From contig JBMFIF010000004.1 of assembly GCA_049976445.1 (NCBI GenBank), forward strand, positions 1 to 55,291: DNA of 55,291 nt. The letters run 5' to 3'. This document shows, one piece after another, positions 9,730 through 44,464 of the stretch. A program made the translations under genes and the position numbers. The notes under the pieces were generated by a model. That model was given only the letters and a program-made list of their open reading frames with translations. It searched no databases and was not told where the DNA came from. The first letter of the stretch is position 1. The number at the start of each line of letters is the position of its first letter. This stretch comes from Thermoprotei archaeon. Lineage in GTDB: Archaea; Thermoproteota; Thermoprotei; Gearchaeales; WAQG01.

Positions 9730-10560
9730 GTGGAGAAAAGAAGAACTCTTTTGAAATTTTTATTACTTTCACCGCTAGGTAGGTTTATTGGATCAATAAT
9801 AACAGCTTTAGGTCTAGGAGCTTATGCTGGATCAAAAGTATATTATAAAACTTATTATTATATCTCAAGAGAAATTGAGGATAAAAATAAAATCATATTA
9901 CCATTACCAAAGTTGATTGGAACGATGAGTGTTGAAGAAGCTTTGGCTTTTCGAAGATCTATTAGAGAATATACTGATGACCCAATAACACTAGAAAAAT
10001 TATCCCAAATACTTTGGGCTGCTTATGGAATAAGTGAAATAAAATGGGGATTAAGAACAGCTCCAAGCGCAGGTGCGTGCTATCCCTTAGAAATCTATGT
10101 TATAGTCTCTTTAAATGGTGTGATTTCTGATAACGGGTACATAGCCCCTGGAATTTATCATTACAATGTGCAGTCTCATGTACTTGAGCTAATTAAATCA
10201 GGCGATTTTAGAGAAGAACTTTACAAGGCTGCGTTGGAACAAGAATGGGTTAGAAAAGCACCAGTAAACATTGTTATAACAGCCATTTATGAAAGAACGA
10301 CACAACGATATGGGGAGAGAGGAAGAATTAGATATGTTCACATGGATTTAGGGCATGTAGGCCAAAATATCTATCTTCAAGCAACAGCATTATCTCTAGG
10401 AACTGTTGCAATAGGCGCTTTTCATGATGACAATGTGAAAAAGATTATAGGATTGCCTGATTATGAAGAACCATTGTATATAATGCCATTGGGTGTTCCA
10501 TCGTGGAAACATAGATTATCGCAAGAGGAACTTAAAAACTTTTACGATAAATATCGATAA
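9730..10560 (+). CDS. SagB-type nitroreductase-family flavoprotein with an N-terminal twin-arginine-like signal/anchor
   Basis: 'FRRSIREYTDDPITLEKLSQILWAAYG' and 'APSAGACYPLEIYV' are typical of SagB/ThcOx-type nitroreductases. The N-terminus 'EKRRTLLKFLLLSPLG...' resembles a Tat motif followed by a hydrophobic stretch. GTG start. Confidence 0.7.
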   Translation: MEKRRTLLKFLLLSPLGRFIGSIITALGLGAYAGSKVYYKTYYYISREIEDKNKIILPLPKLIGTMSVEEALAFRRSIREYTDDPITLEKLSQILWAAYGISEIKWGLRTAPSAGACYPLEIYVIVSLNGVISDNGYIAPGIYHYNVQSHVLELIKSGDFREELYKAALEQEWVRKAPVNIVITAIYERTTQRYGERGRIRYVHMDLGHVGQNIYLQATALSLGTVAIGAFHDDNVKKIIGLPDYEEPLYIMPLGVPSWKHRLSQEELKNFYDKYR

Positions 10561-10592: not shown

Positions 10593-11651
10593 CTATTTTT
10601 GGATGTTAATAAGTCTGTTGTATGTTGTCAATATTTTTTCTTTTGTTTGTTGATCGACTTTTTTAATTTTTGCTATAAGTGTTCCGCTTTTTAATAATGT
10701 TATATCAAAACCATCTTCAACATTAAATGTTATGCTTAAGTTACTGGTTAATAATGGTTTCCATCCTTCTTTAATCCCTTTTTCTTTGATTCTAGATAGG
10801 TCTATGTTTTTAATTATTTTGTTTACGAAGTATACTCCTGAACCATCTCGTGCACAACTCGCTTCTATTTCTTCTATTTTTATAGGTTCAGGTTTTCTTT
10901 CTGGTGCTGTTCCACATACAGGGCATTTTTCGTTTCTGTTTATATTAAGTGTTACAAATTCCATTGTTTTTAAATCTATGTACATAAGTTTGTTTTTTAG
11001 TAATGGTTCCTGGTTCATTATTATTCTTAGCGCTTCTGAAACTGCTATGCTTGCGACTACGAACGTTACGCTTGGATGTACTCCTACGATCGCACATCTT
11101 GGCAGTGTGTCTTCATTATAAATTCCGCCGTAAAAACATTCTAAGCATGGTGTTTTTCCTGGGATTATTGTTGTGACATTTCCATACATTTCTAATGCTG
11201 CGGCGAATATGTATGGTTTTTTTAATTTTACTATTGTTCTGTTTATTATGTATCTTGCTCTTAAATTATCTAAACCATCTAGAACTACATCGACATCTTT
11301 GATTATGTCTTCAGCATTTTCTTCTGTAATAGGTTCAGCTATCACTTCTATCTTCATTCTTGGGTTTATTTCTTTTAATCTTTTTTCTGCTACTTCAACT
11401 TTTGGTTTATCTACATCTTTTCTTGTATAGAGTGGTTGTCTGTGCAGATCTGTTTTTGAGACTATATCCCTGTCCACAATTTTTAGGTATCCTAATCCCA
11501 TAGATGCAAGAAGCATAGCTGCTGGGCTTCCTAACCCTCCAACTCCTATTAATGCAATCTTTCCATTCTTTATTTTCTCTTGTCCGTTTAAGCCTATATC
11601 TTGTAGTACGATTTGTCTCGCGTATTCATCAATTTCTTCGTCGCTTAGCAA
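10593..11651 (-). CDS. E1-like ubiquitin-like-protein activating enzyme (ThiF/MoeB/UbaA family) with a C-terminal extension of about 95 aa
   Basis: Nucleotide loop 'LIGVGGLGSPAAMLLASMGLG', 'DRD', and zinc CxxC pairs 'CLEC' and 'CPVC'. About 95 further residues follow CPVCG with no rhodanese motif. Confidence 0.85.
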   Translation of the reverse strand: MLSDEEIDEYARQIVLQDIGLNGQEKIKNGKIALIGVGGLGSPAAMLLASMGLGYLKIVDRDIVSKTDLHRQPLYTRKDVDKPKVEVAEKRLKEINPRMKIEVIAEPITEENAEDIIKDVDVVLDGLDNLRARYIINRTIVKLKKPYIFAAALEMYGNVTTIIPGKTPCLECFYGGIYNEDTLPRCAIVGVHPSVTFVVASIAVSEALRIIMNQEPLLKNKLMYIDLKTMEFVTLNINRNEKCPVCGTAPERKPEPIKIEEIEASCARDGSGVYFVNKIIKNIDLSRIKEKGIKEGWKPLLTSNLSITFNVEDGFDITLLKSGTLIAKIKKVDQQTKEKILTTYNRLINIQK

Positions 11652-11695
11652 TATTATTCCCCCATTAAATATTAAATTAGAACTTATTTTTTTAT

Positions 11696-11977
11696 TTATC
11701 CACCTGCAACTATTGGTAGTATGTAAATTTCATCGTTCTCGTTCAATTTTGTTTCAATACCATTGAGTGTTTGAATATTTTTGCCGTTTACAAAGATACC
11801 GATTGTTGATTTTATTTGTTGGTTTTCATCTAATATTAAGTCTTTTAACGTTGCACCGTAAAGGTCTATTAATTTGTTTATTACATCTTTTACTTGGTTT
11901 GCATCTATATTAATAACGGTACTTCCCTTTACTCTTTGAGCTATGATTGAGTAGAGTTTTACTTTTACATTGACCAT
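11696..11977 (-). CDS. Ubiquitin-like beta-grasp sulfur carrier/modifier (MoaD/ThiS/SAMP/Urm1-like) ending in GG
   Basis: 93 aa. The C-terminus '...EIYILPIVAGG' is directly followed by the stop codon. Lies 6 nt downstream of the ThrC-like gene and 44 nt upstream of the E1-like gene. Confidence 0.8.
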   Translation of the reverse strand: MVNVKVKLYSIIAQRVKGSTVINIDANQVKDVINKLIDLYGATLKDLILDENQQIKSTIGIFVNGKNIQTLNGIETKLNENDEIYILPIVAGG

Positions 11978-11983
11978 TTAACA

Positions 11984-13198
11984 TCACCATGTTGCTATTT
12001 TGCTTTCAATAACCTGTAAATTAGCTTTTATCGGATTGGCTTTTAATTTTATTGCCTCTTGTTCGAAAATCTCAAGTGATTTAAACCCTGAACCTGTCAT
12101 TAAACAAACAATCTGTTCATCGGATTTGATAACATTGTTATTGACTAATTTTATTAATGCTGCTGTTGTTATTGCTCCAGCAGGTTCTGCGAATAAGCCC
12201 TCGTACTTTGCTAGGATTTTCATTGCATTTACTATTTCTTCATCGGTAACATCTATAGCTAGTCCTCTGCTTTCTTTAATAGCTTTTATTGCATAACGAC
12301 CATCAGCCGGATTACCGATAGCTAAACTTTTGGCTATTGTTTTACAATTACTAATACTAACTTGTCCAGTTTTATAGGCTGAGACTATTGGTGAGCAATT
12401 TTGGGGCTGAACACCTATTAAAGATACTTTTTTATTATCAACAAGATCGAGTGATATTAACTCGTTTAGTCCTTTCCATATCATGTAAAGAAGAGCTCCA
12501 CTAGCCATTGGTATGATAATTTTATCAGGTAATGACCAATTAAGTTGTTCGGCAATTTCGTATGCTAATATTTTTGATCCCTCTGCATAATAAGGTCTTA
12601 GGTTTACGTTTGCTAATCCATAAAGTCCATTCTCGGCTAACTGTAGTGTTAAAAAGTTTAGTTCGTCATAATTTCCATCAACCAGAAGTACATTGGCACC
12701 GTAAGCTATTGCTTGGACTATTTTGCTCAGTTCAGTATCGCTTGGAACTAGGACGAACGATGGTAATCCAACTCTACTTGACAATGCTGCAACTGCTGCT
12801 GCTAAGTTTCCTGTTGATGATGTTCCGATAGCCTTAAAGTTAAATTCTAAGGATTTAATTATTGCAACTGATGCAGGTCTGTCTTTAAACGAACCAGTTG
12901 GATTCAGCGTATCATTTTTGATATAAAATTCTTTTAAGCCTATTAATTGGTTTAATCTTGATGGTTTATAAAGCGGTGTAAACCCTATATCAGTAAATTG
13001 TTCTGGTATTGTCTTAACTGGTAAGAATTCTTTATATCTCCACATGTTTTTCCTTCTATTTTTTAGGTCATTAATCGAGAATTTTATTTCCTTAAAATCG
13101 TATACTACTTCTAAGGGCCCTAAGCATTTTTCACATACAAATCGCGCTTCTGGTTCATAAATCGTTCCGCATTCTCTACATCGTAATTTGAAACTCAT
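11984..13198 (-). CDS. Threonine-synthase-family PLP enzyme with an N-terminal zinc ribbon (ThrC, or a ThrC-like sulfur-incorporating paralogue)
   Basis: Zinc ribbon 'CRECGTIY...CEKCLG', PLP-lysine motif 'NPTGSFKDRPA', and 'SSTGNLAAA'. ATG at 13198; the ORF is open to 13261. Confidence 0.85.
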   Translation of the reverse strand: MSFKLRCRECGTIYEPEARFVCEKCLGPLEVVYDFKEIKFSINDLKNRRKNMWRYKEFLPVKTIPEQFTDIGFTPLYKPSRLNQLIGLKEFYIKNDTLNPTGSFKDRPASVAIIKSLEFNFKAIGTSSTGNLAAAVAALSSRVGLPSFVLVPSDTELSKIVQAIAYGANVLLVDGNYDELNFLTLQLAENGLYGLANVNLRPYYAEGSKILAYEIAEQLNWSLPDKIIIPMASGALLYMIWKGLNELISLDLVDNKKVSLIGVQPQNCSPIVSAYKTGQVSISNCKTIAKSLAIGNPADGRYAIKAIKESRGLAIDVTDEEIVNAMKILAKYEGLFAEPAGAITTAALIKLVNNNVIKSDEQIVCLMTGSGFKSLEIFEQEAIKLKANPIKANLQVIESKIATW

Positions 13199-13480
13199 TA
13201 AGTCCACCCCTTGTATTGAGATAAATTGATATAATAATTTTGTTTGAAAAAAATATTCCAAAAAGAATAAATTGTGCTAGGTTTTTACCTAAATTTTAAA
13301 TAATAATATTTTAAAATAATATGATAAGCAACGCTCAAATATCGTTTAATAGAAGAATGGCAAACTTCGCCCTTCAGAACGGGAAAGAGGTTAGTCAGCA
13401 ATCTGTGTTGTTAATTTTTTATTCAAATAAAACGTTTTTTTAAAATAAGCTTAAATTCTAAGTTTAAATAATAAATATCA

Positions 13481-14065
13481 ATGTTACCAGAACTTTCAGA
13501 AATCATGAAGCTTAGGAAGAAGTTGGGATTAACCCAAAGGGAGTTGGCGAAATTATCTGGGGTAAGTCAATCGCTCATTGCAAAAATTGAATCTGGTAAA
13601 ATTATTCCATCGTATTCAAAGGTAAAAATTATTTTTGATACGCTAGAAAATCTTGAAGAAAAGGTTTTTAAAGTAAACATTAAGGCTGGTGATATAATGA
13701 ATAAAAAAGTTGTCGGTGTTAAATCTAATGATAAAGTTATTAAAGCATCTCAAATAATGCTAAAGCATGGTTTTTCGCAGTTACCAGTTTTTAGTAAAGG
13801 ACGTTTAGTTGGTAGTATATCTGAAAAGGACATAATGAACATTTTATCAAAAGGTTTAAAAATGGAAGAACTTTCTAATATTTATGTTTGTGATGTAATG
13901 GATGAACCTTTTCCACAAATTCCAGTAAAAACGCCATTATCTGTAATCAGTACTCTCCTTCAAACATTTAACGCAGTTTTAGTAGTAAATAAAGGTAGAG
14001 TTGCAGGAATAATAACAAAAGCTGATGTATTAAAAGTTATAGAGAGTAATGAATTATTAAAATGA
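13481..14065 (+). CDS. XRE-type HTH plus CBS-pair domain regulator
   Basis: 'LTQRELAKLSGVSQSLIAKIESGK' HTH, followed by two CBS-like repeats ('IMNKKVVGVKSND...' and 'VCDVMDEPFPQI...'). Confidence 0.8.
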   Translation: MLPELSEIMKLRKKLGLTQRELAKLSGVSQSLIAKIESGKIIPSYSKVKIIFDTLENLEEKVFKVNIKAGDIMNKKVVGVKSNDKVIKASQIMLKHGFSQLPVFSKGRLVGSISEKDIMNILSKGLKMEELSNIYVCDVMDEPFPQIPVKTPLSVISTLLQTFNAVLVVNKGRVAGIITKADVLKVIESNELLK

Positions 14066-29599: not shown

Positions 29600-30895
29600 T
29601 TATTGTTTTTGCGTAGATTTTGCGTATTCTTCAAGGAAAGATATCATCCTTTCATCCAAACGTAACCATGAAGAGATTAATTTTAGATTCTTAGGATTGC
29701 TTACTATAATAGCTAAGTAAGGTAGATACTCATTGTTGATCTTTGATGTGGAAGCATGTAATTTTTTACTAAGTAATTCTAGGAGTTTTTGTTTAATTGC
29801 TCGTTTTTCTTTTAATTGGCTAGCTAATCTAAGACTTTTAGGATAATTGTAAGTTGATTTTGCAGGTCTATTTTTTACTGAAAGAGCAACCCCAGCTGAT
29901 ATGAGTTCTAAGTAATAGCTGAGAAGTTTCCAGTATCTCTTTTGTTCTGATACATTTTTAAATATATCGGCTAATGAAAGTGCATCGTATGCTGCTGCAA
30001 GGTCTCTTATGTCAGTGTAGATATATGGTAGGTTAGCTGAGATCCATGCAGAAATTATCTCTGGATCTTGTATTGTCTCGTTAAGAGCATCTCTCGCTGA
30101 TGATGCTGTTCTTGCATAGAAGATTTTTCTTAATACTGTGAACACGTCATAGACGCGATCTCTACTACTAGCTACATTGGCTAATGCTGGCGTTATGTTT
30201 TTGTCAATTGACATTGATGCTGCTAATTGTAGGTCGAGTATGGAACTTCTCATATCACCATTATTCCTTTCTGCTATTATATGTAAAGCCTGATCTTGGC
30301 ATGTAAGCTTTTCTATTAAACAGATTTTCTTAAGGTAAAAAATGACATCTCTAACTCCAAGTCTTTTAAATTCAATGAGCTGGCATTTTGATCTAAGAGC
30401 TGTTATGTTAGGATTCCATGCATCATTTGCTATTAATACAACAGGATACCGTGATGTGTCAATTATTTCTAATATCGCATTTATAATATCTAGTGCCTTA
30501 GCGCCTTCGATACTGTCTACTTCGTCAAAAAGTATTAAACGTTTTGATCTGAACTCTTTGCTTGGTTGTGCAAAATTTAGTATGTTTTCATTGATACTTG
30601 CAAAACCGGCTATCTTTTTAACTGATTCTGCATTTGCTAAATCTCCTGCATTCATTTCGATTAGATCAATATTGTATTGTTCGCATGCAACCTCTACCAA
30701 TAGTGTTTTTCCAACACCTGGTGGTCCATAGAGCATTACAGTTTTCTGTTTTGATTGTCTTCCCTCAATCCATGGTTTAAGCCACACAAGAAAGGCCTGT
30801 TTTGATTCATTATTTCCTACAATTTCTTCTACTGTTCTAGGCCTATGTTTTATCGTCCAAGGTAATCCATACCTAAGTTGTGGATTTGATATCAT
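29600..30895 (-). CDS. rfcL: Replication factor C large subunit
   Basis: 'PWTIKHRP', Walker A 'GPPGVGKT', 'LFDEVD'. 4-nt overlap with the rfcS stop. Confidence 0.9.
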   Translation of the reverse strand: MISNPQLRYGLPWTIKHRPRTVEEIVGNNESKQAFLVWLKPWIEGRQSKQKTVMLYGPPGVGKTLLVEVACEQYNIDLIEMNAGDLANAESVKKIAGFASINENILNFAQPSKEFRSKRLILFDEVDSIEGAKALDIINAILEIIDTSRYPVVLIANDAWNPNITALRSKCQLIEFKRLGVRDVIFYLKKICLIEKLTCQDQALHIIAERNNGDMRSSILDLQLAASMSIDKNITPALANVASSRDRVYDVFTVLRKIFYARTASSARDALNETIQDPEIISAWISANLPYIYTDIRDLAAAYDALSLADIFKNVSEQKRYWKLLSYYLELISAGVALSVKNRPAKSTYNYPKSLRLASQLKEKRAIKQKLLELLSKKLHASTSKINNEYLPYLAIIVSNPKNLKLISSWLRLDERMISFLEEYAKSTQKQ

Positions 30896-32748
30896 GGCTT
30901 CTCCTTTTGAACAATTTTTGATTCATACCCTATCAATGCTATTTGTGCTAACAAGGAACTAAGTTGGATCTCCTCATTGGAACCCTCCATTAACCTGTAC
31001 TCATAATCACCTAACATCTTCAGTATTTTTATCTTTACAGATTCATCAACATTTAACCTGAATACTTCTTTGTGTATTTGTGATATGATGTCATTTCCTG
31101 ATAACCCGTAGTTATATAATAATTCGTACAATTTATCACGAGCATCTGAAAATCTGCCTATTAGAGCTAGATTAAGTACTTCCCTGACTTCTTTAGGTCT
31201 CGTCATTCCTGCTACTTTATAGATAATATCTCCGGTAATCTTGCTACTTAATGCTGATGCACTTTGTAAGACATTTATTGCTTTTCTCATATCACCAGCA
31301 GAAACATCCCATATAGCTTCATAACCATCCTCTGAAACATCAACGTTCTCATTTTTAGCAATGAATTTCAACCTCTCTATTACTTTATTTTTGGGAAGTG
31401 GACTAAATCTAAACACTACAGTCCTAGATTGTATAGGTTCTATAATTTTGTTACTGTAATTACATGTTAATATGAACCTAACATTTCTGGCAAAAAGTTC
31501 CATTACTCTTCTTAATGCGGTTTGAGCATCTGCTGTCATTGCATCGCTTTCATCTAAAATTATAAGCTTAAAAGGCACATCACCTACAGGTAATGTTCGT
31601 GCAAATCTTTCCTTAATAGTTTCTCTAACAGTATCAATACCTCTTTCATCAGAATTATGCAATAAAATCGGAAGTGCTCCAGCAAAGAACTTTTCATTCC
31701 CAGGTACTGACACATCATAAACATAATCATCATAATCTATCGTTTCTATTTTCATTATCCTCACAACATGCAAATCTGAATTTATAAGAGCCATCAATTT
31801 GTAGTATTCTCTTTTTTCCTCATCACTCAATGAATTTGTATCAACTGGTAATAATAATTCTCTTAACAAATTCTTTGAAGCCACTTCTTCATTATATAAT
31901 CGATGTTCTAACGCATCTCTCCAGTTTATCTTCATTCTTCCATTTATCCTTTCAAAGAATCTCATAAACGGTATGATTGGCAATAAATTTACACTAGAAT
32001 TTTCCTTCCATTCTATTTTCACTTTTCCTTCGAATTCTAGTTTATCCATATTATATACATCTCCTAATAATTCATTTACTTTCAATTTTTGTACTAAGAA
32101 TGATCTGCCATTGTTGTTCAATGTAGAATATTCTATAGTAGTTTCATTAGTATTAGGGTTCGTATTAAATGTGAAAGATATGAGGTAATCTTTTTCCTTT
32201 AATTCATAAGCATGTTTAGTAGTAATATCTCCATTTTCATCAATTATCATTACAGAGTGATTACCTGTTAATTTTAGTTCTCCTTTTTCGAATTTTATTC
32301 TAAGTATTTTGTTTGCTTTATGCCTAATTAGGTACTTAACTTTTCTCCAAACTATTTTTCTATTTTCTTCAGTTAAAACGTCCAAATCATTAACCTTTAC
32401 ATATTCAGTAGTAGCATGATTATTGTTTTTATTAAAATAAATTTTATCCAAATCTTCAAATGCTAATTCTTTTATTCTTCCATTAACTTTTACTAATAGT
32501 GGAGTATCTTTAGAGACCGATGCATTCAGTTCTAAAGTGTTTTCTCTCCAGTTTTCGCCATACAGTTCTCTTGCAAAAGCGATAGCTGTAGCCGTCTTTC
32601 CAACACCCGCAGGGCCAGCAAATAACATATGTGGTACGCTTTTTTCTTTAACGAAAGATTTGAGTGCTCTTATAATATCATCCTGATTTATTATATCATC
32701 TAACCTCTTTGGCCTGTATTTCTCAGCCCACATTAACTCTTCTTCCAT
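30892..32748 (-). CDS. rfcS: Replication factor C small subunit, interrupted by one intein
   Basis: 'WAEKYRP', 'GPAGVGKT', 'ELNA|S...HN|SDERGI', 'ILDESDAMT', 'SRT'. ATG at 32748; the ORF track's 52-codon upstream extension is unlikely to be coding. Confidence 0.92.
   Translation of the reverse strand: MEEELMWAEKYRPKRLDDIINQDDIIRALKSFVKEKSVPHMLFAGPAGVGKTATAIAFARELYGENWRENTLELNASVSKDTPLLVKVNGRIKELAFEDLDKIYFNKNNNHATTEYVKVNDLDVLTEENRKIVWRKVKYLIRHKANKILRIKFEKGELKLTGNHSVMIIDENGDITTKHAYELKEKDYLISFTFNTNPNTNETTIEYSTLNNNGRSFLVQKLKVNELLGDVYNMDKLEFEGKVKIEWKENSSVNLLPIIPFMRFFERINGRMKINWRDALEHRLYNEEVASKNLLRELLLPVDTNSLSDEEKREYYKLMALINSDLHVVRIMKIETIDYDDYVYDVSVPGNEKFFAGALPILLHNSDERGIDTVRETIKERFARTLPVGDVPFKLIILDESDAMTADAQTALRRVMELFARNVRFILTCNYSNKIIEPIQSRTVVFRFSPLPKNKVIERLKFIAKNENVDVSEDGYEAIWDVSAGDMRKAINVLQSASALSSKITGDIIYKVAGMTRPKEVREVLNLALIGRFSDARDKLYELLYNYGLSGNDIISQIHKEVFRLNVDESVKIKILKMLGDYEYRLMEGSNEEIQLSSLLAQIALIGYESKIVQKEKP
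31654..32520 (-). mobile_element. Intein (289 aa) inserted between ELNA and SDERG of RFC-S
   Basis: Block A 'SVSKDTPLLV', block B 'LTGNHSVMI', block F/G 'VYDVSVPGNEKFFAG..ILLHN' followed by +1 Ser. Removing it restores the contiguous RFC-S motif 'ELNASDERGID'. Confidence 0.88.
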
Positions 32749-32804
32749 ACCAACACCTAAAGCTAAAATGTCACAAAACCAAATATACTTTAGGTGTTCC
32801 TCAA

Positions 32805-33590
32805 ATGTACTGGGCCTTAAAATTATTTTACGATGGCACAGCATTTCATGGTTCACAAATTCAACCAAACTTGAGAACAGTACAAGGAGAGCTTGAGAAA
32901 ACACTAAATGATCTTAAATACATAAAAGGACCTGTTAAATTTTGTTGTAGGACTGATGCTGGTGTGAGTGCTCTGAGCCAAATTGTCGTAGCAGATTTTA
33001 CTCGAAAACCGATCATAGGAGAGATAAACAGTAAACTACCTAAAGATATGTTAGTTTGGGCATATTCAGAACTTACAAAAGAATTTTTTATTAAAAAATT
33101 AATCGAGTGGAAATTATATAGATATTATCTTCCAGCATTAGAAAGCACAAATCTAGATAAAATGATCGAAGCAGCTGAATTAATAAAAGGACGTAAAGAA
33201 CTGGGTGGACTTTCAAAAAGTGGACAGGGAGGACTGATTGATGAAATAAGAATAAATCAGAAGAATGGGATATTAATAATGGATTTTAAGGGAAAATATT
33301 TTTCATGGAATCTTATAAGAAGAAGTGTTACAGCACTATACATGATAGGAATTGGAAAATTAACCATTAATCAATTTATAAATATACTAAATAATCGTAA
33401 ACTAGGTGTTCATCCAGCTCCTGCATGGGGCCTAATACTTTTAGACGTTGGTTGTAAGCTTAACTTTACTGTTGACCAACGCGCGTTACATAGGTTAAGA
33501 TTATTTGCAACAAATCTATTATTTATGATGAAAGCTCGAAGCATGATGCTGAATGATCTGATACAATTCTTAAAATATGAAAGCTCTTAA
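32805..33590 (+). CDS. truA: tRNA pseudouridine synthase A family
   Basis: 'YDGTAFHGSQIQP' and catalytic 'RTDAGVSA'. ATG at 32805. Confidence 0.8.
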   Translation: MYWALKLFYDGTAFHGSQIQPNLRTVQGELEKTLNDLKYIKGPVKFCCRTDAGVSALSQIVVADFTRKPIIGEINSKLPKDMLVWAYSELTKEFFIKKLIEWKLYRYYLPALESTNLDKMIEAAELIKGRKELGGLSKSGQGGLIDEIRINQKNGILIMDFKGKYFSWNLIRRSVTALYMIGIGKLTINQFINILNNRKLGVHPAPAWGLILLDVGCKLNFTVDQRALHRLRLFATNLLFMMKARSMMLNDLIQFLKYESS

Positions 33591-43420: not shown

Positions 43421-44464
43421 TTAGAAAAGTTTGAATGATAGGTTATCTACTAGTTTTTTAATGGTGCTTAAATGTTTGTTATCTAGAATGTTGAGTTTTG
43501 AATAAAGACTTAAATATTTTGTCGCGTCGTCCGCAAATATTAGGACTGCAATTCCTTTGACACCTTCGTTGCTAAGTTTTAATGCTGCTGCTAGTACGGC
43601 GCCTGAAGAAGGCCCTATTAGAATGTTTTCTTTTTCTGCAGCTAGTGCTACAGCCTTGAATGCCTCTTCATCGTTTATTCTTATCCATCTGTCAATGATC
43701 TTAATTCTCTTGGAGAGTACTGGTGGTATGCCTGATTCTTCAAAGTTTCGTAGTCCTTGTATATGATGGTTTTTCTGTGGTTCCACAGCTATTATTTCAA
43801 CGCTTCCGTGTTCTTTTAAGTATGTACCTGCACCCGATATAGTGCCTCCTGTTCCGACACCTGCTATAAAGTGTGTGATTTCTCCCTTAGTTTCTTTCCA
43901 TATTTCTGGTCCTGTACTTTCGTAATGTGCTAAAAAGTTTGCCTCGTTTTCATATTGGTTTGGCATGAAGTATTGATCAGGATAACTCTCAACTATGGAT
44001 TTAGCTAGTGCAATGCTTTGATCTGTTCCTTTGCCAACTCTAGGGCACAGGTCGTCCGGTGTTTCAAAGATTTCCGCTCCTATGCTCTTTATTAATAGTT
44101 TTGTTTCATCACTTATTGCCTGAGGAACTACTGCATAAAATTGATATCCTAATGCTCTGGATATGCATGCCAAAGCTATTCCTGTATTACCTGATGTTGG
44201 TTCTATTATTTTTTTATTTTTAGAAAGTAATCCTTCGTTTTCAGCCATTTTAATCATCCAATATGCTGCTCTGTCCTTCAGAGAACCAAATGGGTTTGCC
44301 CATTCTAACTTTGCATATAGTTTAAGTCCTCCATTTTCTAGGTTACTGAGACGTAATAGGGGGGTATTTCCAACTTTTAATTTGTCGCTTGTTAGTAATC
44401 CTTTACTAGCTAGACTTATGTTGTTGATCCAATATTTTATAACGTTAATGTTTAACTCGTACAT
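43421..44464 (-). CDS. Cysteine synthase / O-phosphoserine sulfhydrylase-type PLP enzyme (CysK/CysM family)
   Basis: PLP lysine 'GSLKDRAA', 'PTSGNTGIALA', 'GVGTGGTISG'. 347 aa. Confidence 0.85.
   Translation of the reverse strand: MYELNINVIKYWINNISLASKGLLTSDKLKVGNTPLLRLSNLENGGLKLYAKLEWANPFGSLKDRAAYWMIKMAENEGLLSKNKKIIEPTSGNTGIALACISRALGYQFYAVVPQAISDETKLLIKSIGAEIFETPDDLCPRVGKGTDQSIALAKSIVESYPDQYFMPNQYENEANFLAHYESTGPEIWKETKGEITHFIAGVGTGGTISGAGTYLKEHGSVEIIAVEPQKNHHIQGLRNFEESGIPPVLSKRIKIIDRWIRINDEEAFKAVALAAEKENILIGPSSGAVLAAALKLSNEGVKGIAVLIFADDATKYLSLYSKLNILDNKHLSTIKKLVDNLSFKLF

Follow-up and report, generated by a model that had tools for sequence, protein, structure and literature searches.

A probable MetM/MetO-type homocysteine biosynthesis module in a three-gene operon of a hot-spring archaeon

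In the MetM/MetO/MoeZ/Mec pathway, O-phosphohomoserine is converted to homocysteine, a route that bioRxiv 10.1101/2024.10.14.618325 attributes to Hasebe et al. 2024, Appl Environ Microbiol 90:e01247-24. The same preprint describes MetM as "often misannotated" as threonine synthase. The S. albulus metM gene is preceded by a SAM riboswitch and has metO adjacent to it, according to PMC12172450, and maturation by a Mec-type hydrolase is listed for S. albulus MetO in GapMind 2026. The preliminary description of the archaeal operon treated here had named a MetM/MetO route as a precedent; that route is real, as both papers that report on Hasebe et al. 2024 attest. No description of an archaeal MetM/MetO was found in the literature searched, and no link to threonine synthase is mentioned in the surveys of Makarova and Koonin 2010 or Iyer et al. 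2006.

The operon in its window

The operon belongs to an uncultured hot-spring archaeon and consists of three tightly linked genes on the minus strand, with 6 nt between those for the enzyme and the carrier (Ubl) and 44 nt between those for the carrier and the E1 (Table 1). All three were also called independently on six public contigs from this species. The co-directional reading frames and both gaps are as first described; the enzyme, given before as 405 aa, comprises 404 aa plus the stop codon. Its ATG at 13198 is preceded by GGGGTGG and its stop lies at 11984. The other structural details announced for the three proteins are likewise present: a CxxC...CxxC zinc ribbon at C7/C10/C22/C25 of the threonine-synthase-family enzyme, a 93-aa beta-grasp protein (Pfam ThiS) that ends in PIVAGG before a TAA stop, and both CxxC pairs of the E1, namely CLEC (C169/C172) and CPVC (C243/C246).

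Table 1. Features of the operon and its upstream region (positions within the window)
Feature	Coordinates	Strand	Basis
MetM-type ThrC homologue, 404 aa; predicted O-phosphohomoserine-dependent homocysteine synthase	11984..13198	-	Pfam PALP, NCBIfam, clade, AF2 model
N-terminal four-Cys zinc ribbon of the enzyme, residues 1-35	13094..13198	-	C7, C10, C22, C25
MetO-like sulfur-carrier protein, ThiS/MoaD beta-grasp, 93 aa	11696..11977	-	Pfam ThiS, C-terminal VAGG
E1-like adenylyltransferase, ThiF/MoeB type, 352 aa, TTG start at 11651	10593..11651	-	Pfam ThiF
E1 C-terminal alpha/beta domain, ~100 aa, about residues 255-352	10593..10889	-	AF2 model and alignment
27-nt block GAATATTTTTTTCAAACAAAATTATTA, -60 to -34 from the first gene's ATG; candidate promoter/operator	13232..13258	-	Cross-genome identity

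The upstream block GAATATTTTTTTCAAACAAAATTATTA is the same, letter for letter, in three genomes with enzymes of 82-100% identity, whereas the intergenic DNA that flanks it has diverged; this pattern makes it a candidate promoter or operator. Pfam and NCBIfam scans of the window, by which is meant the whole 55,291-nt stretch that was analysed, found no hom, thrB, metE/metH, sulfite reductase or tusA gene in it, and neither a canonical thrC nor a second E1. Rfam finds one tRNA only; neither a riboswitch nor any further methionine-linked signal turned up in the window, and methionine/SAM-responsive control, which supports rather than defines a MetM assignment, was thus not seen there. The possibility that a PALP gene at 43421-44464 is a second thrC was ruled out, as that gene is of the CysK/CysM family. 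A SagB-type nitroreductase and an HTH-CBS regulator were weighed as functional partners and set aside, because their conservation does not reach beyond the relatives at 82-89%, which amounts to local synteny. A thiazole/oxazole peptide cluster is not indicated, because no YcaO-type partner was seen.

Enzyme, carrier and E1

The enzyme matches Pfam PALP with 226 bits in the profile scan, and its PLP lysine, K105 in an SFKDR motif, aligns with K61 of T. thermophilus ThrC. Its best NCBIfam match is PRK08197 (284 bits), narrowly below that model's cut-off of 303; the thrC equivalog TIGR00260, whose cut-off of 167.1 the enzyme clears, scores lower (253.8 bits). The same order of scores is found in eight riboswitch- or Ubl-linked homologues (PRK08197 286-319, TIGR00260 268-304), and the opposite order in two canonical ThrCs that such loci also encode (TIGR00260 327-333, PRK08197 196-212). 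Since the riboswitch-linked, MetM-like proteins also clear the TIGR00260 cut-off, this model cannot separate the two groups. The cysteate synthase model TIGR03844 gives the enzyme only 89 bits, against a cut-off of 325.

A simple neighbour-joining tree of 89 sequences, in which five solved ThrCs and three in-locus canonical ThrCs served as canonical references, places the enzyme inside a Ubl-linked clade with a bootstrap of 75/100, a moderate level of support. Of the 19 alignment columns that separate the clades, 18 show the Ubl-linked state in the enzyme and none the canonical one. Signature residues L132, N199, R201, Y204 and S233 align with T88, S155, N157, R160 and N188 of T. thermophilus ThrC, and the replacement of T88, S155, R160 and N188 by L132, N199, Y204 and S233 extends throughout the clade. 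These four canonical residues reportedly form the substrate-phosphate site (Omi et al. 2003). By its sequence, then, the enzyme is something other than a canonical threonine synthase. Clustering with canonical ThrC, which the preliminary description had named as part of the outcome that would speak against its proposal, did not occur: the enzyme sits in a separate Ubl-linked clade, with 18 of the 19 signature columns to match.

The AF2 model of the enzyme (pLDDT 87.8) has the ThrC fold, with a TM of 0.86 to 2zsj. The PDB ThrC chains, which lack the zinc ribbon, align with the enzyme only past residue ~48-55. This ribbon is modelled as two beta hairpins (pLDDT 88-93), and its cysteines C7, C10, C22 and C25 are all invariant in the homologue alignment. 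It may serve as the docking site for the carrier.

The carrier matches Pfam ThiS with 37 bits and scores almost equally with two NCBIfam models, SAMP1 (59.8 bits; cut-off 60) and moaD_arch (59.6 bits). Its best PDB match is 2l52, the M. acetivorans SAMP1 homologue, and its match to CysO (3dwg_C) is weak (E = 4e-4). Urm1_like gives only 31 bits against a cut-off of 70, with a match to 4wwm at E = 3e-4, and the carrier does not, on these scores, appear to be an Urm1 orthologue of the Sulfolobus type. Carriers from bacterial operons with SAM riboswitches have the same score pattern (SAMP1 45-66), so the SAMP1 score is no sign of conjugation. The carrier is 27% identical to, and colinear with, that of the actinomycete Nonomuraea. 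Since GG itself forms the C-terminus, no trimming is needed; in several relatives the GG is trailed by 1-12 additional residues, and here it stands directly before the stop codon.

The E1 matches Pfam ThiF (259 bits) and no other family. Its GVGGLGS nucleotide loop (G36-G41), crossover-loop C186 and zinc site C169/C172/C243/C246 are conserved across E1 alignments, and its AF2 model (pLDDT 91.6) superposes on ThiF 1zud over the core with a TM of 0.96 and an rmsd of 1.9 A. It has no rhodanese domain: Pfam finds ThiF alone, and the MoeZ model yields 170 bits where its cut-off is 647. The C-terminal domain is confidently modelled and lies outside every ThiF/MoeB/Uba4 structural match (~247 columns aligned). 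Within it, C266-x-R268-x-G270 is invariant in 20 archaeal E1s and missing from short bacterial E1s, and it is a candidate sulfur-relay site.

The closest relatives of this E1 beyond the genus, at 56% identity, are stand-alone genes with neither enzyme nor carrier nearby. The E1 is of the general archaeal type, so that it could plausibly serve other Ubl pathways as well. The dual use suggested earlier is plausible for the E1, since those closest extra-genus relatives are general E1 genes standing alone, and less plausible for the Ubl, because the latter does not appear to be a Sulfolobus-type Urm1.

Conserved neighbourhood and competing readings

Among 77 related loci with room for a downstream carrier gene, a GG-type carrier gene follows the enzyme gene on the same strand in 68, in more than 10 phyla and usually at a distance of no more than 40 nt. 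Because a ThiS/MoaD-type gene follows in so many loci, the linkage of enzyme and carrier is not due to chance. In 13 Nitrososphaeria loci a Ubl-E1 fusion occupies the downstream position, and an E1 also adjoins in many archaeal loci. The neighbourhood that the preliminary description had asked about is therefore conserved, the Ubl across more than 10 phyla and the E1 in many archaeal loci. A SAM-I riboswitch lies directly upstream in 18 of the 23 bacterial loci.

In archaeal relatives of 50-52% identity, homoserine dehydrogenase, sulfite reductase and TusA join the string of genes. The order in archaeal locus L090 is enzyme, carrier, homoserine dehydrogenase, E1, sulfite reductase and TusA, and L089 has the same order without hom; the Hcy operon of Wolinella likewise includes a sulfite reductase. 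L090 also encodes a second, MoaD-like Ubl (moaD_arch 73.7 bits). The bacterial loci L013 and L022 are arranged as hom, tusA, E1, enzyme and carrier. A canonical ThrC is present besides the paralogue in L013, L027, L070 and Nonomuraea. The last, a cultured actinomycete whose chromosome was found by tblastn of a plasmid collection, has riboswitch, enzyme and carrier together and encodes a canonical ThrC at another place on its genome; its MetM-like enzyme is 44% identical to the archaeal one over the full length, zinc ribbon included. It serves as a proxy for S. albulus: a search from an actinobacterial homologue, aimed at S. albulus MetM, yielded nothing beyond near-identical sequences of Acidimicrobiia.

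These observations favour the reading, to which a probability of about 0.8 is given, that the operon is a MetM/MetO-type module for the biosynthesis of homocysteine, in the methionine branch. The original suggestion of a protein-thiocarboxylate module that makes homocysteine, as opposed to a plain thrC, draws support from the clade, the carrier linkage, the bacterial riboswitches and the archaeal hom, sulfite reductase and tusA genes. On this reading, the E1 would adenylate the carrier, and the AMP would be exchanged for sulfur, delivered by a persulfide relay or as free sulfide, to give the carrier thiocarboxylate. The ThrC-like PLP enzyme would take O-phosphohomoserine and, with loss of phosphate, form a PLP-bound vinylglycine intermediate, to which the thiocarboxylate sulfur would be added at C-gamma; homocysteine would then leave and the carrier be regenerated. 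Substrate, product and sulfur donor are thus predicted for the archaeal enzyme, which may also be bifunctional.

Should the enzyme instead be an ordinary threonine synthase, with Ubl and E1 serving unrelated pathways (molybdenum/tungsten cofactor, tRNA thiolation, protein conjugation) and adjacent only incidentally, its TIGR00260 score of 254 bits (cut-off 167), its ThrC fold and PLP lysine, the family name "threonine synthase" in every source and the SAMP1/MoaD-like score of the Ubl would all be expected. This reading is highly improbable, given a clade apart from canonical ThrC and none of 19 canonical signature states, a carrier linkage that crosses phyla in 68 of 77 loci, upstream control in 18 of 23 bacterial loci by a SAM riboswitch rather than a threonine-related element, and canonical ThrC coexisting with the paralogue in the four cases named above. 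A different substrate for the carrier thiocarboxylate, such as O-phosphoserine for cysteine synthesis (CysM/CysO-like on a ThrC fold) or the precursor of another thio-amino acid, is very unlikely. Sulfite reductase and TusA neighbours would suit any product of sulfur assimilation, and cysteate synthase is a known O-phosphoserine-using ThrC paralogue, but its model scores only 89 against 325 here; homoserine dehydrogenase lies inside the L090 operon and adjacent in L013 and L022, the bacterial riboswitches sense SAM and not cysteine, and O-phosphohomoserine is the substrate of the characterised relative. The CysK/CysM genes found in the enzyme-carrier operons of bacterial loci L074, L018, L042/L053, L067 and L046 can be read in favour of cysteine, yet they argue that cysteine comes from CysK/CysM and not from the ThrC-like enzyme.

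A MetM-type homocysteine synthase might also use free sulfide in vivo, hot springs being sulfide-rich, with Ubl and E1 engaged mainly in conjugation, tRNA thiolation and cofactor synthesis. Na2S mimicked MetM activity in a later study that cites the original work (PMC12172450), the single E1 of S. acidocaldarius serves Urm1 (PMC4569737), and the E1 homologues nearest to this one beyond the genus (56% identity) occur without enzyme or carrier. Against this, the tie to the enzyme extends to the carrier gene and is not confined to the E1: enzyme and carrier genes are linked in 68 of 77 loci, as a rule no more than 40 nt apart; the second Ubl of L090 (73.7 bits with moaD_arch) suggests that the operon carrier is a dedicated one, and the Ubl does not appear to be of the Sulfolobus Urm1 type (31 against 70 bits; 4wwm, E = 3e-4). 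Such a division of labour is unlikely. An extended version of the homocysteine module, in which the operon E1 is the sole E1 of the lineage and serves methionine as well as other Ubl pathways, sulfur is delivered through Cys266, invariant within the archaea-specific C-terminal domain, in place of a rhodanese, and the divergent HTH-CBS regulator acts on the 27-nt block as a protein counterpart of the bacterial SAM riboswitch, is doubtful as a whole. The other Ubl pathways in that version would be Urm1-type conjugation, tRNA thiolation and cofactor synthesis.

If the enzyme is of the MetM type, the name "threonine synthase" would be corrected across Thermoproteota, Bathyarchaeia and the ammonia-oxidising Nitrososphaeria, and a gap in homocysteine synthesis would be filled for thermophilic autotrophs, including a crenarchaeon and Acidimicrobium (PMC5764234). 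The operon would offer a compact three-protein system with its own E1 and a processing-free carrier, and a model for how a ThrC scaffold that adds water at C-beta is retuned to add sulfur at C-gamma.

Comparison with described systems

Canonical ThrC (TIGR00260; 2zsj, 6cgq, 2d1f, 1uim) shares with the archaeal enzyme its fold (TM 0.83-0.87), the SFKDR motif of the PLP lysine and probably the substrate. The two differ in sequence (32-37% identity), in clade and in the extra zinc ribbon of the archaeal protein, and the segments aligned with the ThrC phosphate site change from STGNT to STGNL, from N-SVNPxR to NVNLRPYY and from GNAGN to ASGAL. UbaA-SAMP of Haloferax and ELSA-Urm1 of Sulfolobus (PMC4569737) have the general archaeal E1 architecture of a core plus a C-terminal domain, described by Makarova and Koonin 2010 (PMC2948915), as does the E1 considered here; the archaeal Ubl lies at the SAMP1 threshold (59.8 versus 60) and does not appear to be an Urm1 orthologue.

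In CysO/CysM/MoeZ/Mec of M. tuberculosis (3dwg), too, a protein thiocarboxylate feeds a fold-type II PLP enzyme whose substrate is a phosphorylated hydroxy-amino acid. CysM, a member of the CysK/CysM family, carries out a beta-replacement on O-phosphoserine, whereas the archaeal enzyme is of the ThrC family and is predicted to catalyse a gamma-replacement on O-phosphohomoserine. HcyS/HcyF/HcyD/MetY of W. succinogenes also lead from a carrier thiocarboxylate to homocysteine (Krishnamoorthy and Begley 2011, cited in PMC5764234), but MetY, which is unrelated to ThrC, is an O-acetylhomoserine sulfhydrylase of fold type I and uses O-acetylhomoserine as its substrate.

The closest parallel is S. albulus MetM/MetO, where a ThrC-homologous PLP enzyme is likewise followed by the gene of a GG-type carrier that a ThiF/MoeB-type E1 activates, and where O-phosphohomoserine yields homocysteine, as predicted for the archaeal operon; the likeness to S. 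albulus MetM is drawn through the Nonomuraea proxy (44% identity) and published descriptions. The archaeal system differs in its host, in an E1 that is encoded within the operon and does not have MoeZ's rhodanese domain, in a carrier that ends in GG and needs no Mec-type trimming, and in having no SAM riboswitch. Most likely, the operon is an archaeal example of the route described in Streptomyces in 2024 and not a new kind of system.

Operon and flanking genes

The preliminary description of this archaeal DNA (33% G+C in the window) proposed that a ThrC-like PLP enzyme incorporates sulfur fed by an adjacent carrier protein, and is not the product of a plain thrC. This interpretation is supported by the enzyme's separate clade, its linkage to a carrier, SAM riboswitches in bacterial relatives, and hom and tusA neighbours in related loci. 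The three co-directional genes are as first described, with gaps of 6 nt (ThrC-like gene/carrier) and 44 nt (carrier/E1); coordinates, Pfam domains and the genes called independently on six contigs bear this out, except that the enzyme has 404 rather than 405 residues. The window sequence is present in contigs of uncultured Thermoprotei MAGs, e.g., GCA_049973215.1.

Features of the window and of related loci (L-numbers)
Feature	Position (strand)	Details
ThrC-like gene	ATG 13198 to stop 11984 (-)	404 aa; GGGGTGG 5' of ATG; Pfam PALP
Carrier gene	11977-11696 (-)	93 aa; C-terminus ...PIVAGG-TAA; Pfam ThiS
E1 gene	TTG 11651 to 10593 (-)	352 aa; Pfam ThiF
E1 C-terminal domain	10593-10889 (-)	last ~100 residues
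Spacer 5' of E1 gene	11652-11695 (-)	44 nt; ATAAAAAAATAAGTTCTAATTTAATATTTAATGGGGGAATAATA
27-nt block	13232-13258	-60 to -34 from operon ATG
HTH_3 regulator gene	13481-14065 (+)	two CBS domains; divergent from operon
SagB-type nitroreductase gene	9730-10560 (+)	TIGR03605 146 bits; convergent with E1 gene
CysK/CysM-family PLP gene	43421-44464 (-)	30 kb from operon; TIGR01136 286 bits, below cut-off
RFC small-subunit gene	30892-32904 (-)	split by intein (Pfam Intein_splicing, residues 177-417); in replication cluster with MCM, archaeal helicase and Cdc6
YeiH-family gene, L089	6492-7805 (-)	Cons_hypoth698
YeiH-family gene, L090	14381-15673 (+)	Cons_hypoth698
CysK/CysM operon, L074	7918-9787
Ubl-E1 fusion loci		L012, L017, L031, L034, L035, L038, L043, L057, L058, L059, L061, L073, L085

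Within the E1 spacer the stretch TTTAATATTTAA resembles, by eye, an archaeal TATA element, so that the E1 gene might have its own promoter besides that of the operon. Three genomes share the 27-nt block upstream of the operon without a single difference, although the DNA on either side of it has diverged. SAM sensing by the divergent regulator is a speculation built on the ability of CBS domains to bind adenosyl ligands. The nitroreductase has a hydrophobic N-terminus with Arg-Arg, and no YcaO-type partner for it was seen; its place beside the operon is shared only by the relatives at 82-89% identity, which retain all three operon genes together with it. Pfam and NCBIfam scans of the window showed no canonical thrC or other methionine gene, only the CysK/CysM-family gene.

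The enzyme and canonical threonine synthase

The enzyme begins with a CRECG...CEKC motif, all four cysteines of which are invariant in 14 homologues. Its top NCBIfam model is PRK08197 (284 bits; cut-off 303), followed by the threonine synthase model TIGR00260 (254 bits; cut-off 167), and the cysteate synthase model reaches only 89 bits. Eight homologues show the same pattern, PRK08197 (286-319) exceeding TIGR00260, whereas two in-locus canonical ThrCs (L013, L027) score 327-333 with TIGR00260 and 196-212 with PRK08197. In a simple neighbour-joining tree of 89 sequences, the enzyme falls into one clade with the 80 homologues (bootstrap 75/100), and five solved ThrCs plus three canonical ones encoded within the loci lie outside it. 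Nineteen alignment columns discriminate the two groups; the enzyme carries the new-clade residue at 18 of the 19 and the canonical residue at none. The comparison of models and phylogeny proposed in the preliminary description sets the enzyme apart from canonical ThrC.

Five signature columns were matched to Thermus thermophilus ThrC numbering by HMMER alignment: L132, N199, R201, Y204 and S233 correspond to T88, S155, N157, R160 and N188. T88, S155, R160 and N188 are reported to form the substrate-phosphate site of ThrC (Omi et al. 2003; Murakawa et al. 2011). An AF2 model of the enzyme (pLDDT 87.8) matches ThrC structures with TM 0.83-0.87, and structure comparison of this model found no solved structure closer than ThrC.

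Carrier, E1 and gene context in relatives

Scanning genomes with aligned homologues as the query gave 80 loci (44-52% identity) from Thermoproteota, Bathyarchaeota and Nitrososphaerota among archaea, and from Actinomycetota, Chloroflexota, Nitrospirota, Verrucomicrobiota, Acidobacteriota, Planctomycetia, Cyanobacteria and Zetaproteobacteria. Conservation of the neighbourhood, which bears on the earlier proposal, is borne out: a profile built from adjacent carriers found a ThiS/MoaD-type gene 3' of the enzyme, on the same strand and mostly within 40 nt, in 68 of the 77 loci with room downstream, and an E1 is nearby in many archaeal loci. The C-terminus of these carriers is either (A/S)GG or a GG trailed by a few residues. 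The enzyme, Ubl and E1 genes are separate in L010 and L080, like those of the window. In 13 Nitrososphaeria loci the ThrC-like gene and a Ubl-E1 fusion gene downstream of it are 0-35 nt apart; the fusions of ammonia-oxidising members have the carrier (...PAVAGG) at the N-terminus, then a linker and the E1. With its Gly-Gly internal, the predicted fusion must require cleavage or some use in cis.

A SAM riboswitch lies directly upstream of the enzyme gene in 10 of 11 actinobacterial loci and in 7 of 11 from other bacterial phyla. Another is in the cultured actinomycete Nonomuraea gerenzanensis, which brings the total to 18 of 23 bacterial loci. Its enzyme shares 44% identity with that of the window across the full length and is followed by a 91-aa carrier ending in AVAGG; 9 Mb away the genome also encodes a canonical ThrC with 65.5% identity to its M. 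tuberculosis counterpart. This replicon (NZ_LT559118.1, 11.85 Mb), filed as "plasmid I" in a plasmid collection, is chromosome-like, with canonical thrC, groEL and the riboswitch-metM-metO locus aboard. Haloarchaeal megaplasmids carry full-length zinc-ribbon "thrC" genes ~38% identical to the MetM-like query.

The archaeal locus L090 has the order enzyme, carrier, homoserine dehydrogenase, E1, sulfite reductase and TusA, and L089 the same without hom (enzymes 50-52% identical to that of the window); a putative sulfate exporter of the YeiH family adjoins both strings. The gene order in Nitrospirota loci is hom, tusA, E1, enzyme, carrier, to which L013 adds a canonical thrC. CysK/CysM genes share an operon with the MetM-like enzyme and carrier in several bacterial relatives (L074, L018, L042, L053, L067, L046), which hints that one carrier may supply both cysteine and homocysteine synthesis.

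The window carrier scores 59.8 with SAMP1, 59.6 with moaD_arch and only 31 with Urm1_like; its match to the Sulfolobus Urm1 structure 4wwm is weak (E = 3e-4). Since bacterial carriers from SAM-riboswitch operons give the same SAMP1/moaD_arch pattern, the SAMP1 score is no evidence of protein conjugation. Features of the E1 include a nucleotide loop, an invariant crossover-loop Cys186 and a four-Cys zinc site; its core superposes on ThiF (TM 0.96), and Pfam and NCBIfam scans found no rhodanese domain. Its C-terminal region is a confidently modelled alpha/beta domain whose counterpart is absent from ThiF, MoeB and Uba4 structures; C266-x-R268-x-G270 is invariant there in 20 archaeal E1s, both operon-linked and stand-alone. 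This extra domain fits the archaeal E1 architecture of Makarova and Koonin (PMC2948915). The nearest E1 relatives outside the genus (56% identity) are stand-alone genes, and the single E1 of S. acidocaldarius serves Urm1 (PMC4569737); it is therefore plausible that the window E1 is shared with other Ubl pathways.

Comparison with MetM/MetO of Streptomyces albulus

The MetM/MetO route from O-phosphohomoserine to homocysteine, named in the preliminary description, does exist (GapMind 2026, PMC12172450). GapMind 2026 (bioRxiv 10.1101/2024.10.14.618325) lists the carrier MetO, hydrolase Mec, ligase MoeZ and MetM, a frequently misannotated threonine-synthase homologue catalysing that conversion; in S. 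albulus, PMC12172450 places a SAM riboswitch upstream of metM and metO adjacent. Organisms listed in 2018 as lacking a known homocysteine route include a crenarchaeon and an Acidimicrobium (Price et al. 2018, PMC5764234), and the MetM-like family is abundant in Acidimicrobiia. The window cluster fits the S. albulus pattern as published descriptions give it, and its sequence supports the prediction of an archaeal member of the MetM/MetO kind. Four differences set it off: an archaeal host, an E1 encoded inside the operon, the absence from this E1 of the rhodanese domain of MoeZ, and a carrier that, in contrast to Mec-processed MetO, needs no trimming.
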